Source: an uncultured Candidatus Saccharibacteria bacterium (lineage in GTDB: Bacteria > Patescibacteriota > Minisyncoccia > Phycocordibacterales > UBA5272). Taken from it: a DNA stretch of 31,234 nt. The position numbers and the translations under genes were made by a program. Every line of letters begins with the position of its first letter. Position 1 is the first letter of the stretch. The stretch lies in the NCBI GenBank assembly GCA_964577625.1, contig CAZNZP010000001.1:1-31234 (forward strand), in the 5' to 3' direction. Positions 25,661 to 31,234 of this stretch are shown piece by piece. The notes under the pieces are model-generated. The model ran no database searches. It saw only the letters and a program-made list of their open reading frames with translations, and was not told where the DNA came from.

Positions 25661-28417
25661 CTATTTTTTCTTATTTTCTTTCAAATTTTCAGCCTGTATT
25701 GGAGAAACTATTTTTTCTTTTTTTATCTTTTTAATTTCAACAGATATTTTTTTATTTATTTCTTTAGAATTTTTGTCTTTTTCTTCTTTGAGATCTACTT
25801 CTACGACATTGTCATAAGTGAGGGAAGTTTTTGAAAAATCAAATTCTAATAAATCCTTTGCTAATTCATTCAAGACATTTGTTTGAATATATCTTTTGAC
25901 TGGTCTTGCTCCATAGTGAGTATCATAAGACGAATCCGCAATGAACTCTCTTGCTTTATCTGAGACAGACAATTTCAACTCTCTTCCTACTAATCTTTTT
26001 TCTAATTCATTGATTTGAAGATCTACAATCTTTCTAATTTCTTCTTTTTTCAAAATATCAAAGATAATAATCTCATCTAATCTATTTAGAAATTCTGGAC
26101 GGAAAAAATCTTTGAGAGATGACATAACTTTTTCTTTTGTTTCTATATAGTCATACTCTTCATCTCCAGCATGACTACTAAATCCATAACTCTCCATTTT
26201 TTGAATATATTGTGAGCCAATATTACTAGTCATGATGATAATAGTATTTTTGAAGTTCACAAATCTTCCTTTACTGTCTCTCAATCTTCCTTCATCTAGT
26301 ACTTGAAGCAAAATATTAAAGACTTCTGGATGAGCTTTTTCAATCTCATCAAAAAGTAGTACGGCATAAGGTCTATGACGAACAGCTTCAGTTAAATGTC
26401 CTGACTCATCATAGCCGACATATCCAGGAGGAGAGCCAATCAATTTAGATACAGAATGCTTTTCCATATATTCACTCATGTCTACTTTGATTAAAGCTTT
26501 TTCATCATTAAACATAAATTCTGCTAAAGCTTTAGAGAGTTCTGTCTTCCCTACTCCTGTCGGACCGAGAAACATAAACGATCCAATTGGGCGATTCGGA
26601 TCACCAATACCGACTCTTGATCTTCGGACTGCATCAGAAATTTTTTCAATAGCTTCTTTTTGTCCAATCACTCTTTTACTGAGTTCATCTTCCATTTTAC
26701 GAAGTTTAACTTGTTCTTCTTCAAGCATTTTAGCTAAAGGTATACCAGTCCAACGAGCGACTACATTTGCAATATCTTCTTCTGTAATCTCTTCTCGCAA
26801 AACTCTTCTATTTTTTTGAATCTTCTTAAGTTTATCCAATTTAGAATTTAAATCTTTAGTGAGTTTAGGTACTTCACTATATTTAATTTCAGCGATTCTT
26901 GCTAAATCTCCTACCGCTTCAAGGTTTTCAGATTCAGTTCTTAAATAATCTAATTTTTTACGAATATCTTTTATGTCTTCCAAAATATTTTTCTCATTAT
27001 TCCAACGAATCTCTAATTCTTTGACACCTTCTTTAATATTCGCAATTTCTTCATCAACTTGCTTAATACGAGATTTCAATTCCACATTTTTACCTTTTGT
27101 CGCCGCCAAATCTTTACTTAAAGCTTCTTTTTCAATTTGAAGTTTCAAAATCTTTCTATGAGCTTCTTCTAAATCAGAAGGTTTATTTTCTAAAGAAATA
27201 CGCATACTGGAAGCTGCTTCGTCTATGAGGTCTACTGCCTTATCCGGAAGAAATCTATTGGTAATATATCGGACAGATAAATTGGTAGCTGCCAATAATG
27301 CATCATCGGTAATACGCACTCCATGAAAGAGTTCGTATTTTTCTTTGAGTCCACGCAAAATTGCTAAAGTGTCTTCTATGGATGGCTCATCTACATAAAT
27401 TGATTGAAATCTTCTAGCGAGCGCAGAATCTTTTTCAATATGCTTTTGATATTCAGAAAGAGTTGTCGCACCGATGACTTTGATTTCTCCTCTCGCGAGT
27501 GCCGGCTTTAAAAGATTAGCCACATCACTTCCACCTTCTGCTGCCCCTGCTCCGACAATAGTATGAATCTCATCAATAAAGAGAATAATTTTTCCTTCAC
27601 TTCTTTCAATCTCTTTCATGATTTGCTTCAACCTCTCTTCAAATTCACCTCGGAATTTTGTACCAGCGATAAGCATACCCAGGTCTAAAAGTACTATCTC
27701 TTTATCTTTTAGAGATTCTGGCACATCTTGCCTAGCTATTCTATTTGCCAAACCTTCCACAATAGCGCTTTTTCCTGTACCTGCATCGCCGATTAAAATC
27801 GGATTATTTTTGGTACGACGAGAAAGGATTTCCATGAGACGCATAATCTCATTATCTCTTCCGATGACTGGATCAAGTTTGTCTTGTCTAGCGAGCTCTG
27901 TCAAATTACGAGTAAATTTGATAAGCCATTTATTTTTCTTTGGTGCTGGAATATTTTCGGAATTAGAATTTTTGAATTCTAAAACTAAATTTCTAACTAC
28001 ATCTTTATCTATTTTAAATTTCTTTACTATTTCTTCTACTTGCTGTCCTCCAGCTTCAAGTATTGCTAGAAAGAGAATTTCTACACCAATGAATTCATCT
28101 TTCATCTCTTTAGAAAGATGTATAGATCTTTCTAAAGTCTGAGCAAAATCTCCAGTCAAATACATTTGTGGAGTTGGTGAAAGTGTGGTCGCTGCTGGGA
28201 AACCTTCAATATTTTCCAAAAGAATATCTAAAAGTAAAACATAATCTACATTCATTCTTTCTAAAATTGGCACGACCATATTATCTTCCTGTAAAAGAAG
28301 ACCGGCAAACAAGTGTATAGAAGACACATGGTTTTGATTTCTTTCCATAGCCAATTGATGGGCTCTATGAATAGCGTCTTTGGCTTTAGTTGTAAAATTG
28401 TTAAATGCTGGAGGCAT
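25661..28417 (-). CDS. clpB: AAA+ chaperone ClpB
   Basis: [28 protein letters not shown], coiled-coil M-domain, [32 protein letters not shown]. Confidence 0.96.
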
Positions 28418-28493
28418 AGTTTGTATTGTTTTAGTTATAGATTCAAAAAATATTTTTTGAATCTTACATTTACATAAGTGTATTAATTAATAA

Positions 28494-29072
28494 TTAATTA
28501 TTTTCAAATCTCTCTTCTATTACTTTCCAATTAACATTTTCTAGAAAAGCATCTATATATTCACCCTTTTTGGTACCATAATCTGGAATAAAGGCGTGCT
28601 CAAGCATATCCATACAGAGAAGAATCTTTGAATTAGCAAAAATTCCTGTACTATGCTCCTCAAACCACAAATTAAATAACTTGTCTGTCCCCTCTTCTTT
28701 TACAAGAGCGACCCAGCCAATACCACGAGCAAGTCCAATATTTTTAAATTCTTTTAAGAAGTTTTCAAAACTTCCATAAGTTTCATTTATTTTTTTTACC
28801 AATTTACTTTCCCGATTAATTTCTCCTTTTTCTTTAGAGAGAGATTCAAAATAAATTTCGTGTAATTTCATTCCATTGTATTCCCAGGCAAATCGTCTCT
28901 GTACTTCTGATTTTTCTATACTTCCATCTTCTAATTTCTTTCCGTCAAACTTTTCAAGAATACTATTTACATTTTTAACATATCCCTCATAAAGAGTAAA
29001 GTGAATATTAAGTGCATTATCTGAAAAACCATTCATTCCTAATAAATTTTTATAATCTTTTGCTGTATACAT
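28494..29072 (-). CDS. Fe/Mn superoxide dismutase family protein
   Basis: HFTLYEGYVKN, LHEIYF, GIGWV, DMLEHAF (variant of DxWEHAY); all four metal ligands apparent. Metal specificity not assignable. Confidence 0.88.
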   Translation of the reverse strand: MYTAKDYKNLLGMNGFSDNALNIHFTLYEGYVKNVNSILEKFDGKKLEDGSIEKSEVQRRFAWEYNGMKLHEIYFESLSKEKGEINRESKLVKKINETYGSFENFLKEFKNIGLARGIGWVALVKEEGTDKLFNLWFEEHSTGIFANSKILLCMDMLEHAFIPDYGTKKGEYIDAFLENVNWKVIEERFENN

Positions 29073-29140
29073 ATGTATATATGTTATCACAAAAGATATT
29101 TTTGTTATAAAATGAGTACTAAATTTTTAACAAAAATGAG

Positions 29141-29169
29141 TTGACATAAGTCAAAAAATATGTTAAGCT
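29141..29169 (+). promoter_or_regulatory. Sigma70-like promoter for the OmpA gene, overlapping the divergent sod promoter
   Basis: TTGACA-17-TAAGCT with TG; TTGAC-ATAA-GTCAA palindrome supplies a -35 on both strands. Confidence 0.6.
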
Positions 29170-29216
29170 AAAGCCAGATAGTAAAGTTAGTAATGTACTT
29201 ATAAAAATTAATAAAA

Positions 29217-30575
29217 ATGAAGAAAATTTTATTCCTTTCTTGCCTTTTGGCAGTGACGATGGGTCTAAGTGCTCAAAATCAAAACTTCAATGGATGGCGT
29301 GTTACCGCCAAGGTTGGATTACTGGAAAGTAATCTAAATAAATACTATGGACTTGCTGATGGGATCTGTACTGAAACAGGTCAAGCGTCACAAGTAGAAC
29401 TTGAAAGGTTTCCATTCGGACTCGGAAACGAAAAAAGAAATGGAGCTATAATTGGCGCAGCGCTCGGTCACAACTGGGCGTCAGATAATCTTTTAATTGG
29501 TCTAGAAGGAGGGTTCTATAAAACTTTTATGGAATACGATTTTTATAACCAAAATTGGTTACAAAATATTCCGGAAGGATTGGTGATGACAAATCTAAAT
29601 TTGGATTATCTTGCTGATGCGAGTTTAATCTTGGGAGGAATTGTAGCCGAAAAAGTTTTGATTTATGGAAAAGGTGGTTTCACTGCCGGATACTTCAATC
29701 ATTTAGACAGGGTTAATGTGAGTAATGACAGAGCTTATTATCAAAAGCTTTGGAACCCTGGTTATACTGTTGGTGGTGGCATTAAATATGCTATCAATAA
29801 TCGTTATGCTTTAGGTCTTGAATATGGTTATTCTAAATTTAAAGATCTAAATCAATTGACCTATAATAAAGTAGGACAATGGGAAGGTACTTTTGTTACC
29901 AAACAACATGTGAACTTGCATGCTGTCATGGCAACATTTACAATTGGTCTAGGACAAAAAGTTTCAAAAGTTCCTCGTCCTCGTATAACCACTCCTCCCG
30001 TAATTAAACAACAAAGACAACAAGAGCCCTGTATGGAATGTCCTCCAGAAAGACCGGTGACAACAAAAAGACAAAGACCGGTGGTGGTAAAGGAGATAAT
30101 AAAAGAACGTGAAGTAATTCGCGAAACTATTCGCGAAACCGAAACGAAACACGATTTTGGAAAGCCGGAAGTTGGAAAAATCATAACCTTAAGAGCGATC
30201 TACTATGATTTTGATCAGGACTATATTCGTCCTGACGCAAGACCAGACTTAGATAAAGTTGTAGCATACATGAACGAATATCCTGATATGGAGATAGAAC
30301 TTTCATCCCATACAGATAGTCGTGGTAGCGATAGTTATAACTTGGATTTATCTCAACGTCGTGCCCAAAGCGCTGTGAATTATATTGTCTCTAGAGGAAT
30401 AAGCTCTTGGAGAATTGTAGCTAAAGGATATGGGGAAAGAAGATTGGTAAACAATTGTTCTGATGGTGTTAATTGCTCTGAAGGAGATCATCAAAGTAAT
30501 AGACGCACCGAAATAATGATTACCAAACTCAATGGAAAAACAATTCCTGTAGAATCCAGTTACCGCTCCAGATAA
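29217..30575 (+). CDS. OmpA-family protein: N-terminal outer-membrane beta-barrel plus C-terminal OmpA-like peptidoglycan-binding domain
   Basis: Signal peptide; amphipathic strands (GYTVGGGIKYAINNRYALGLEYGY); IYYDFD..IRPDA, IELSSHTDSRGSDSYNLDLSQRRAQS, KGYGE, C-x5-C, NRRTEI. Confidence 0.92.
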   Translation: MKKILFLSCLLAVTMGLSAQNQNFNGWRVTAKVGLLESNLNKYYGLADGICTETGQASQVELERFPFGLGNEKRNGAIIGAALGHNWASDNLLIGLEGGFYKTFMEYDFYNQNWLQNIPEGLVMTNLNLDYLADASLILGGIVAEKVLIYGKGGFTAGYFNHLDRVNVSNDRAYYQKLWNPGYTVGGGIKYAINNRYALGLEYGYSKFKDLNQLTYNKVGQWEGTFVTKQHVNLHAVMATFTIGLGQKVSKVPRPRITTPPVIKQQRQQEPCMECPPERPVTTKRQRPVVVKEIIKEREVIRETIRETETKHDFGKPEVGKIITLRAIYYDFDQDYIRPDARPDLDKVVAYMNEYPDMEIELSSHTDSRGSDSYNLDLSQRRAQSAVNYIVSRGISSWRIVAKGYGERRLVNNCSDGVNCSEGDHQSNRRTEIMITKLNGKTIPVESSYRSR

Positions 30576-30598
30576 TTAATTCATTTTTAAAAACAATT

Positions 30599-30627
30599 AA
30601 ATAACCCCTTTTTGATAGGGGTTATTT
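30599..30627. terminator. Bidirectional terminator
   Basis: AAATAACCCCT...AGGGGTTATTT. Confidence 0.8.
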
Positions 30628-30658
30628 TTATTTTCTAATTTTTCTAAAAGTCTTTATT

Positions 30659-31234
30659 TTAACTTGATTTATATTTAAAATAAATTTCTTTTAAAATTTT
30701 TGCAAACCTCTTTAAATCTTCTTCTTTAGTTTCAGAGTTTATACTAATACGAATAGTCTCTTTAGCGATTTTAATAGCTTCAGGTTTTTTCTTTTTGTCT
30801 TTATGTAAAGCAAAAATCACATGACTATAATCATCATTTTTTGCACTACAAGCTGATCCAGCAGATATCGCAAAACCTTTTTCATCCAATCTTAAGACCA
30901 TTTCATCAGATGGAAAATCCGGAAGCCAAAGAGAAATATTAGAAGGTATTCTTTTAGCTTCTCTTTCTTCTCTAGCAATACCAACCTTTTCAACTTTCCA
31001 TTCATTTTCATTCCAAGCTCCGTTTAGTTTGGCTTCTGGAATATTTTTAAAAATTTCTTTTAAGAAATTATTTCTTTTAACTGCTATACTTTCTAAAAAC
31101 TTTGCATCTTTAATTTTTTTTTGCGCTTCTTCAAGAGCTACTGAAAGTCCTACTGCTTTTTCAATATCTACAGTACCTGAAAAAATATTTCTTTCTTGTC
31201 CCCCACCAAAATAGCTTCCTAAAATTTTTACATA
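30659..31234 (-). CDS. Cysteine desulfurase (IscS/NifS family), 3' part
   Basis: Frame is open from the window end: GGEQERNIFSGT...RIPSNIS...LDEKGFAISAGSACSA (catalytic Cys)...TIRISI. Confidence 0.9.
   Translation of the reverse strand, partial: YVKILGSYFGGGQERNIFSGTVDIEKAVGLSVALEEAQKKIKDAKFLESIAVKRNNFLKEIFKNIPEAKLNGAWNENEWKVEKVGIAREEREAKRIPSNISLWLPDFPSDEMVLRLDEKGFAISAGSACSAKNDDYSHVIFALHKDKKKKPEAIKIAKETIRISINSETKEEDLKRFAKILKEIYFKYKSS

Follow-up and report, generated by a model that had tools for sequence, protein, structure and literature searches.

How a gene for an outer-membrane (OM) protein came to stand in a bacterium that appears to lack an outer membrane, and what its product might do there, is the question raised by the open reading frame (ORF) at 29217–30575 (+) of the window, the whole 31,234-nucleotide (nt) stretch of DNA analyzed in this study. 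Beta-barrels of the OM are taken to mark diderm cells and to depend on the barrel assembly machinery (BAM), and the ORF encodes a 452-amino-acid (aa) protein that carries such a barrel in front of an OmpA-type C-domain. The window forms the entire contig C1 of a genome of 518 kb in 48 contigs (95.4% complete, 0.04% contamination), the closest named relative of which was a Candidatus Elulimicrobiales metagenome-assembled genome (MAG) of the Patescibacteria group; its source is an Elulimicrobiales (Patescibacteria) bacterium of approximately 0.5 Mb from anaerobic digesters and sludge. Hereafter, G000 denotes the window's genome, G005 (the named relative) and L030 the other species that carry the gene, and L033 another strain of the window's species. 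The results described below made it very probable that the ORF is a genuine, transcribed gene, which the ancestor of a small subclade obtained from a GC-richer, Bacteroidota-type donor with its own promoter and which was subsequently lost from some descendants, that it is inserted in opposite orientation between the genes for cysteine desulfurase and superoxide dismutase (SOD), and that its product is a Sec-exported protein of barrel, linker and OmpA_C domain.

The original prediction, made from the nucleotide letters, had described a signal peptide ending at LSA before a Gln, an OmpA-like barrel, a Pro/Cys linker and an OmpA C-domain, and all four parts were recovered in our analysis, the signal peptide as a prediction from the sequence. 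Residues 1–19 (29217–29273, +), which in the translated sequence run as MKKILFLSCLLAVTMGLSA followed by QNQ, read as a Sec/signal peptidase I (SPase I) signal peptide with typical n-, h- and c-regions and a predicted cut between LSA and Q. The lipobox Cys was missing, and the predicted cleavage would expose Gln20, which was unchanging across all aligned members of the family, including the patescibacterial, phage and Bacteroidota copies. A crude genome-wide census of signal peptides and of Gln at +1 was discarded, since its cuts fell inside h-regions and it misplaced the site of the OmpA gene itself. The following segment (residues 20–246; 29274–29954, +) was assigned to an 8-stranded beta-barrel domain of the OmpA/OmpW type on the basis of Pfam, an AlphaFold2 model and structural superposition. 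The Pfam family OMP_b-brl (PF13505) matched residues 8–213 with 32.9 bits against a cut-off of 28.7, and the AlphaFold2 model, which was made from nine homologs, predicted a confident barrel at approximately residues 26–244 with strands of high predicted local distance difference test score (pLDDT). When residues 22–246 of the model were superposed on known 8-stranded OM barrels, namely the OmpA transmembrane domain, OprG, OmpW and NspA, Z-scores of 15–17 and rmsd values of 2.4–2.8 Å were obtained. In the model, the strand pattern read as the usual OmpA topology, with presumed periplasmic-side turns that are short (90–91, 145–146 and 193–196) and long loops on the opposite side.

The barrel is followed by a predicted disordered linker (residues 247–310; 29955–30146, +; pLDDT <50 over 248–310), which is rich in Pro and charged residues, contains Cys within the motif EPCMECPPERP, and is 64 aa long compared with 30–43 aa in the aligned homologs. 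The remainder of the gene (30147–30575, +) encodes the OmpA_C-type, putatively peptidoglycan-binding domain, at approximately residues 311–440, and closes with a short tail of variable sequence before the stop codon; PF00691 (OmpA) matched residues 329–418 with 65.4 bits, so that both Pfam domains were above their cut-offs. The C-domain was modelled with an alpha/beta fold and matched the peptidoglycan-binding domains of Pal, OmpA_C and MotB proteins at a Z-score of approximately 13, including the complex with a diaminopimelate (DAP) peptide (3TD5). The motifs SSHTDSRG and NRRTE were both present, and the alignments revealed that T366/D367/R369, R382 and the C414-x5-C420 loop were invariant across the family. 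The block formed by T366/D367/R369 and R382 was common to PorE, and aligned with 6TOP, the best sequence match of solved structure (83.7 bits). These residues may be the equivalents of the DAP-contacting Asp and Arg in liganded structures. The OmpA_C fold, together with this invariant motif, suggested that the C-domain would bind peptidoglycan.

In the cell that encodes this protein, the canonical pathway for placing such a barrel was not found, in line with the description of Patescibacteria as lacking lipopolysaccharide and BAM machinery: searches of the 95.4%-complete genome for BamA/Omp85, LptD, LpxC, OEP/TolC and secretin were all empty. The OmpA gene encodes the sole barrel and the sole OmpA domain of G000, a second, weak PF13505 match on contig C9 having proved to be a family-2 glycosyltransferase and not a barrel. 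When PF13505 was searched for in 400 other Patescibacteria genomes, sampled evenly, a single one was matched. The lone match (L036, G225:C48:6142-6798) is a 276-aa barrel on a contig of 55–60% GC in an oversized 1.7-Mb bin of 120 contigs, and it is probably a binning contaminant that is not to be trusted. The genome does encode peptidoglycan synthesis, including a MurE that was identified with 289 bits (L034, G000:C30:2700-3893). As a separate observation, a relative from the same family (G036) was found to encode a 601-aa protein, P0397 (L009:1501-3303, −), with an N-terminal membrane anchor and, at the C-terminus, an OmpA_C domain that scored 78 bits; the extracytoplasmic region of approximately 450 aa between them was not matched by Pfam. 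This is a peptidoglycan-binding architecture of monoderm style.

A Bacteroidota fragment joined by assembly or binning to a patescibacterial contig would explain such a gene trivially, and the junctions at 29090–29217 and 30575–30659 were accordingly singled out by the original prediction for checks of continuity. The left neighbor is an Fe/Mn SOD gene (28494–29090, −), which probably begins at the ATG at 29072, as its orthologs do, and the right neighbor is a cysteine desulfurase gene of the Aminotran_5 family (30659–31234, −) that is cut by the contig end. The OmpA gene thus lies 659 nt from the end of the contig and is GC-richer than its flanks, both of which would suit an artefact; the same may be said of the assembly X13, from another study, which breaks at 29075–29315 into overlapping pieces. 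These pieces nevertheless bridge both junctions and overlap with strain differences, as expected for a strain-polymorphism bubble. Furthermore, an independent contig (X3) covered 28000–31234 and both junctions with zero differences and continued beyond the window end. In G005, the gene order ClpB-SOD-[OmpA]-cysteine desulfurase-IF2-RbfA was seen on a 275-kb contig as well as on an independently assembled 333-kb contig, and the same arrangement was present in the third species (L030) and in L033. The stretch 28400–31234 was also found at 98–100% in public DNA runs from more than 10 studies of sludge, digesters and biogas, the locus being represented in more than 16 studies, and the divergence of the orthologs roughly matched that of the flanking SOD (nonsynonymous divergence, dN, 0.30 vs 0.23). 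Since an identical insertion with identical flanks was thus found in three species, and independent assemblies (at least five, with contigs of up to 333 kb) run across the junctions, a chimeric assembly was excluded for practical purposes, and no chimeric junction was seen. None of the three conditions that the original prediction had named as fatal to it was thus encountered, since the OM pathway was not found and the N-domain modelled as a barrel. As for variation among strains, the SOD genes of the window and of L033 (2455-3819 for the OmpA gene) were identical, and the OmpA genes differed at 34 nucleotides, 28 of which fell in the last third (30147–30575) and included a different C-terminal tail; the overlapping X13 variants likewise indicated local strain-level variability across the promoter and 5′ end (29075–29315).

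The distribution of the gene among relatives was patchy. It was present in one of the 14 other species of the genus (G005) and in none of the 46 more distant relatives searched, i.e., in 1/60 overall. The junction between cysteine desulfurase and SOD was empty in G002, G006, G007, G008, G009 and G010, with a gap of 32–92 bp by ORF coordinates, and it was filled by unrelated ORFs of 108–152 aa and no known function in G001, G003, G004, G011 and G014; in the carriers, it (29091–30658 of the window) holds the OmpA gene on the strand opposite to both neighbors. The junction is therefore a gene-insertion hotspot in the genus (window; L013-L026). In a tree of ClpB and SOD, the carriers fell into one subclade (99/99) together with the non-carriers G007 and G008, and G007 was placed as the sister of G005 (100/100). 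No remnants of the gene were detected at the empty junctions, the one significant short match falling beyond the insert, in the leader of SOD. A single gain in an ancestor, with later losses, was favored over repeated gains, because the carriers share the insertion site, orientation, promoter and leader, and because the dN of the OmpA gene between G000 and G005 (0.30) is near that of SOD (0.23).

Both halves of the protein pointed to the Bacteroidota as the source, as had been proposed. Full-length relatives outside the Patescibacteria were 39–41% identical by BLASTP (43–45% in MAFFT alignments) and collinear over 96–97% of the length. One relative's contig carried the Bacteroidota hallmarks TonB_C, DUF4890 and GH20/GH84, and a relative's contig also carried a ZapA-RNase Y pair, of which the RNase Y was 92–93% identical to that of named Bacteroides species. 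The top 120 matches were obtained via the OmpA_C domain at 55–66% identity, and all named proteins among them belonged to the Bacteroidota. The barrel subfamily itself was rare: when 1.84 billion representatives were searched exhaustively by profile, five sequences were returned at E<1e-30, after which the matches dropped off sharply to generic barrels, and a word-seeded search with the barrel alone retrieved just three orthologs. Applied to GTDB species genomes, the barrel profile retrieved only the Elulimicrobiales genome and two weak, unrelated alphaproteobacterial matches, and the subfamily occurred in no GTDB Bacteroidota species representative scanned; a metagenome scan added an additional assembly of the G005 species, a single weak match and nothing more, and a cluster look-up of nine members of the family yielded no source names. 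On a further Bacteroidota contig (L031:4962-8720), two tandem paralogs of the subfamily (614 and 616 aa), with CarboxypepD_reg-like domains inserted between barrel and OmpA_C, immediately preceded a UpxY/NusG-Wza-Wzc capsule locus.

The family tree recovered the patescibacterial copies as monophyletic (99/99) and placed them among copies of Bacteroidota context, the nesting itself being weakly supported (branches 68–77). The direction of transfer from Bacteroidota to Patescibacteria is therefore well supported by distribution and composition, and modestly supported by topology; Bacteroidota were reported to be among the phyla that share genes most often with Patescibacteria (10.1101/2022.10.05.510940). 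As to composition, the original prediction had called the gene GC-richer than its neighbors, which was true though moderate: its GC content was 38.1%, compared with 32.7 ± 3.0% for the long ORFs of the genome (96th percentile), and its fit to the codon usage lay at the 5th percentile. GC at third codon positions (GC3) was 27.4%, compared with an ORF mean of 21.7% for the genome and with 20.6% and 22.3% for SOD and ClpB of G000, and it reached 36–37% in G005 and L030, where the neighbors showed 17–22%; the Bacteroidota copies showed 36–45%. This rise of GC3 toward donor values, together with the insertion at a variable junction and the presence in 1/14 congeners, and with the match of PF13505 in 1/400 other Patescibacteria genomes, was in good agreement with the proposed horizontal acquisition. 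A Gln at +1 corresponds to the "Q-rule" described for SPase I substrates of Bacteroidota (PMC5837995). As no glutaminyl cyclase of either type (PF05096 or PF04389) was matched in G000, this Gln looks like a relic of the donor.

The closest relative of the patescibacterial clade was apparently phage-borne. A 400-aa copy, recovered as its sister (98/100) in a grouping that was flagged as a possible long-branch effect, is encoded on a 27-kb phage-like contig (L032), which displayed small unidirectional ORFs, RNase H, phosphoesterases, a ClpP-type prohead protease and 30.5% GC. This contig carries 21 tRNA genes within approximately 10 kb, and the barrel-OmpA gene (10001-11203 of L032:1-21203) lies inside the tRNA island. 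The phage and patescibacterial copies share rare indels that are missing in the Bacteroidota copies, namely a short mature N-terminus and a Cys-bearing loop L1, and in both the loop L3 is approximately 13 residues shorter and W-x-P-G replaces the W-N-W-G of the Bacteroidota copies. The sampled phage lineage was judged an unlikely recent vector, because the GC3 of the phage copy was 10%, compared with 27–37% in the patescibacterial copies; it may have acquired its copy from a patescibacterium, or both may have drawn on one unsampled donor. Among the L032 ORFs, just ClpP (33%) and RNase H (29%) matched G000, with no host link found, and a scan of viral contigs with the phage copy gave zero matches.

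The gene appeared to be maintained and expressed. Between G005 and L030, dN/dS was 0.047 for the barrel, 0.061 for the whole gene and 0.092 for the neighboring SOD, values that are approximate because dS was at or near saturation. The hydrophobicity of the strand columns correlated between the patescibacterial and Bacteroidota copies with r = 0.73, compared with a maximum of 0.24 in 1000 shuffles, and 44 of the 54 hydrophobic strand positions were kept; the membrane-type surface of the barrel thus showed no sign of decay. The ORF was covered by contigs from metatranscriptome libraries of two studies, and in X17 an RNA contig of 1174 nt corresponded to 29272–30445, with both intergenic regions uncovered though DNA contigs continue there. 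These contigs provided good evidence for transcription of the OmpA gene, in a form that does not distinguish the strands; the depths of RNA contigs cannot rank genes, and uncovered RNA stretches are not evidence of absence. Contigs from the RNA-library run X15 fitted the window up to 28803 and 29207 and then continued with approximately 255 nt of unlike sequence, which may reflect the context of another strain or a chimeric transcript assembly.

Although BAM, lipopolysaccharide (LPS) and other OM machinery is missing, the barrel and its pattern of hydrophobic residues are kept intact by selection, and we therefore propose a mechanism in three steps. The protein would be exported by Sec, its C-domain would grip peptidoglycan, and the barrel would fold without BAM into a lipid bilayer that is not made by the cell's own pathways. 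The likeliest bilayer would be the outer membrane of a diderm partner, a member of the Bacteroidota or a similar bacterium, in which case the protein could tether one envelope to the other, or act as an adhesin, where symbiont and host touch. The original prediction had likewise suggested delivery to, or docking on, a diderm host envelope, as well as possible binding of DAP-type peptidoglycan. In vitro, barrels of the OmpA type do not need BAM in order to fold into bilayers (PMC7383365). A partner's outer membrane was favored because the protein is an accessory, hotspot-borne part of the envelope, borrowed recently from a phylum that may also supply the partner, because loops L1 and L3 on the external side are shortened in patescibacterial as well as phage copies, and because the gene is dispensable in sister species; its accessory, hotspot-borne distribution also fits a partner-specific role. 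We assign the whole explanation, including gene identity, origin and mechanism, a probability of roughly 0.4, and offer the mechanism by itself, a wall-anchored, BAM-independent tether most plausibly seated in the outer membrane of a diderm partner, as a tentative proposal. Its boldest form, according to which a monoderm, BAM-less episymbiont plants a stolen Bacteroidota OmpA barrel in the outer membrane of its diderm partner while holding peptidoglycan by the C-domain and so builds a bridge between two cell envelopes, is rather doubtful; if it were true, the split between carriers and non-carriers within the genus would mark a difference in host range. In a weaker form, which is conceivable, the related copy in a tRNA-rich phage would mean that the gene is traded by phages of these ultra-small bacteria.

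A number of points weigh against this proposal. Each step past translation, i.e., export, peptidoglycan binding, bilayer insertion and the choice of bilayer, is inferred. The unfolded barrel must cross the cell's own wall, where Skp/SurA-type chaperones were not evident, and native lipid headgroups kinetically hinder insertion that proceeds unassisted (PMC7383365). In such reactors, archaea, which are without an outer membrane (PMC9600506), are known as patescibacterial hosts alongside diderm bacteria (PMC11393006). G000 MurE has SDPY at the position of the DNPR of meso-DAP (m-DAP)-adding enzymes, a sequence difference that is suggestive only but by which the third-position residue of the wall may not be m-DAP, and which makes binding of the C-domain to the cell's own wall uncertain. 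The closest sister species, G007, does not have the gene, and the gene must therefore be dispensable. In addition, the retention of the hydrophobic pattern would be expected from maintenance of the fold alone, and the saturation of dS and the low support for nesting within the Bacteroidota copies, both given above, count on the same side.

The choice of bilayer is where the proposal met its most serious rival, namely that no partner cell is involved and the barrel inserts from outside into, or packs against, the cell's own cytoplasmic membrane while OmpA_C binds the cell's own wall, giving a membrane-to-wall tether like OmpA or MotB. We consider such an internal strut possible, and nearly as likely as a tether in a partner's membrane. 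The cytoplasmic membrane is the only bilayer that is always at hand, and the unfolded chain comes out at this very membrane; OmpA that is added to one side of a bilayer in vitro inserts from there, and its C-domain stays behind on that side (established knowledge; reviewed in PMC7383365); and the relative G036 already has an OmpA_C domain on a membrane-anchored protein. Purifying selection and the kept hydrophobic pattern are compatible with any bilayer, and nothing favors the own membrane over that of a partner. A housekeeping role in the envelope, moreover, fits poorly with presence in 1/14 congeners and loss in G007, a barrel in an energized membrane risks leakage, and the MurE without DNPR leaves binding to the own wall uncertain. 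A second way to house the barrel at home would be an outer lipid layer of the Elulimicrobiales lineage built by unrecognized machinery. Envelope architecture has been directly viewed in few Patescibacteria (PMC8871954), and the maintained hydrophobic pattern of the barrel would suit such a cryptic diderm, but neither BamA, LptD, LpxC, TolC nor secretin was found, a single barrel is encoded in a 95%-complete genome of 518 kb, and close congeners do not have even the OmpA gene; an outer membrane with one dispensable protein is implausible, and this alternative is very improbable.

The remaining alternatives concern what the gene is kept for, if for anything. That it acts in phage interaction, as a mobile, "moron"-type surface protein that alters or masks phage adsorption (superinfection exclusion or decoy) and moves between phages and cells, drew support from the sister copy on a phage-like contig with its 21-tRNA island (98/100, shared rare indels), from the variable junction, which in other congeners holds different small accessory ORFs, and from the finding that phage adsorption is blocked when OmpA/OmpX-like barrels or lambda Lom are expressed (10.1101/2025.02.28.640651). 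The cited examples, however, act within an outer membrane, which the G000 cell does not have; the phage copy differs in GC3 (10% vs 27–37%), the other L032 genes show no specific link to G000, and no further phage or defence genes flank the OmpA gene in the window, so that we regard this function as improbable. Slightly less probable still is a functionless passenger, i.e., a foreign gene that is incidentally transcribed and heading for loss. It would account for the gene having been lost from, or never fixed in, G007 and G008, for a composition that is still atypical and for a genome that offers nothing of the family's canonical assembly pathway. It is, however, difficult to reconcile with an ORF that is intact in three species differing at 35–40% of residues, with a barrel dN/dS of approximately 0.05, similar to that of the neighboring SOD, with a conserved promoter and leader, and with the retention of the family-invariant Gly and aromatic residues and of the motif shared with PorE. 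The partner-membrane tether, with the reservations listed above, was retained as the tentatively preferred reading.

When compared with known systems, the protein shares with E. coli OmpA, P. aeruginosa OprF and Bacteroidota OmpA-like proteins the succession of predicted signal peptide, 8-stranded barrel, Pro-rich linker and C-terminal OmpA_C, and its best structural match as a whole model was full-length E. coli OmpA (Z 17.4; Foldseek E 4e-11). Unlike OmpA and OprF of diderm cells, it occurs in a genome without BAM, LPS, Lpt or any other OM protein, has a linker of approximately 64 aa, and is a patchy accessory insertion, not a core gene. That the protein resides in an outer membrane which its own cell assembles with BAM was not indicated, the OM genes not having been found in the 95.4%-complete genome; the protein is therefore a homolog of OmpA by sequence and fold, yet cannot act as a canonical OmpA in the G000 cell. 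With the barrel-OmpA subfamily of Bacteroides and other Bacteroidota (P0005-P0009, P0123), it has in common the Gln at +1, the Gly and aromatic positions of the barrel, the position of the linker and the C-x5-C loop, and the patescibacterial copies differ from these in the shorter mature N-terminus, the Cys in loop L1, the L3 shortened by approximately 13 residues and the W-x-P-G already mentioned. For the C-terminal OmpA_C domain, the closest families were CHU_0125 (NF053607) and PorE of the type IX secretion system (T9SS; NF052230) of Bacteroidota, which scored 156 bits (cut-off 620) and 101 bits (cut-off 600) in NCBIfam over the last ~130 residues only, at profile positions 509–637 and 494–598, respectively, i.e., in their C-domains. 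In contrast to these two, the protein has no TPR, WD40/PD40 or CarboxypepD_reg modules and carries an N-terminal barrel instead, and it was ruled out as an equivalog of either since the scores are far below the whole-protein cut-offs. A Pal-type lipoprotein was likewise ruled out, on the grounds of Gln instead of Cys at +1, the N-terminal barrel and a Pal_lipo (TIGR02802) score of 71 bits against a cut-off of 125.

The small 8-stranded barrel fold is also common to the phage moron lambda Lom and the Ail/Lom family (Ail Z 12.7), which can block phage adsorption. No sequence match to the Ail/Lom family was obtained in Pfam at E<=1, and, in contrast to these proteins, an OmpA_C domain is added and the gene is chromosomal in G000, with no surrounding prophage. 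Peptidoglycan-binding OmpA_C domains in the absence of a classical outer membrane are known from monoderm-type proteins such as M. tuberculosis ArfA (Rv0899), MotB/MotS and the above P0397, and the C-domain model superposed on 2LBT at a Z-score of 12.6 and on MotB at 12.4; these proteins are anchored by transmembrane helices, whereas the patescibacterial protein has an OM-type beta-barrel. No earlier report of a barrel-OmpA protein in Patescibacteria was found, in a literature coverage that is incomplete and not proof of novelty.

The transfer itself is ordinary biology; a retained and expressed OM barrel in a monoderm cell without BAM is not. If the barrel truly folds into a bilayer, the protein would represent either BAM-independent assembly in vivo or the insertion by one cell of a protein into the outer membrane of another. 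It would also provide handles on an uncultured lineage, since it is a candidate attachment factor and directs attention to the Bacteroidota of digesters as donors and possible partners, and the carriers G000, G005 and L030 offer a natural comparison with the non-carrier sister species G007 and G008. If the protein is merely a wall-bound strut or the gene a passenger, the finding shrinks to a well-documented kind of cross-phylum transfer into Patescibacteria.

The regulatory elements proposed for the gene, an own promoter and terminator, were supported in part. A candidate sigma-70-type promoter, composed of TTGACA, a 17-nt spacer and a TG-extended −10 element TAAGCT, lies at 29141–29169 (+), and the pattern TTGACA-N17-TGn-TA(G/A)(A/G)(T/C)T was kept upstream of the G005 and L030 orthologs despite saturated synonymous sites. 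A generic promoter scan performed at chance level (8 sites vs 8.0 expected), and the assignment of the promoter is thus based only on cross-species conservation. A bidirectional intrinsic-terminator hairpin with an 11-bp stem is located at 30599–30627, between the convergent OmpA and cysteine desulfurase genes, and the corresponding scan returned 4 terminator-like sites vs 1.0 expected. The transcript would be predicted to start approximately 7–10 nt past 29169 and to finish at this hairpin. The 5′ leader (29175–29216, +) contains, according to the alignment, a block common to the three carrier species, and no Shine-Dalgarno (SD) site was found in it. An SD-like core was present upstream of just 3% of the long ORFs of G000, as expected from shuffled sequences, and this patescibacterium apparently starts translation without SD pairing. 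The missing SD was accordingly rejected as a foreign mark of the OmpA gene, because in a genome that is devoid of SD sites throughout it is uninformative. With respect to the other end of the reading frames, TGA served as the stop codon in 4 of the 274 long ORFs of G000.

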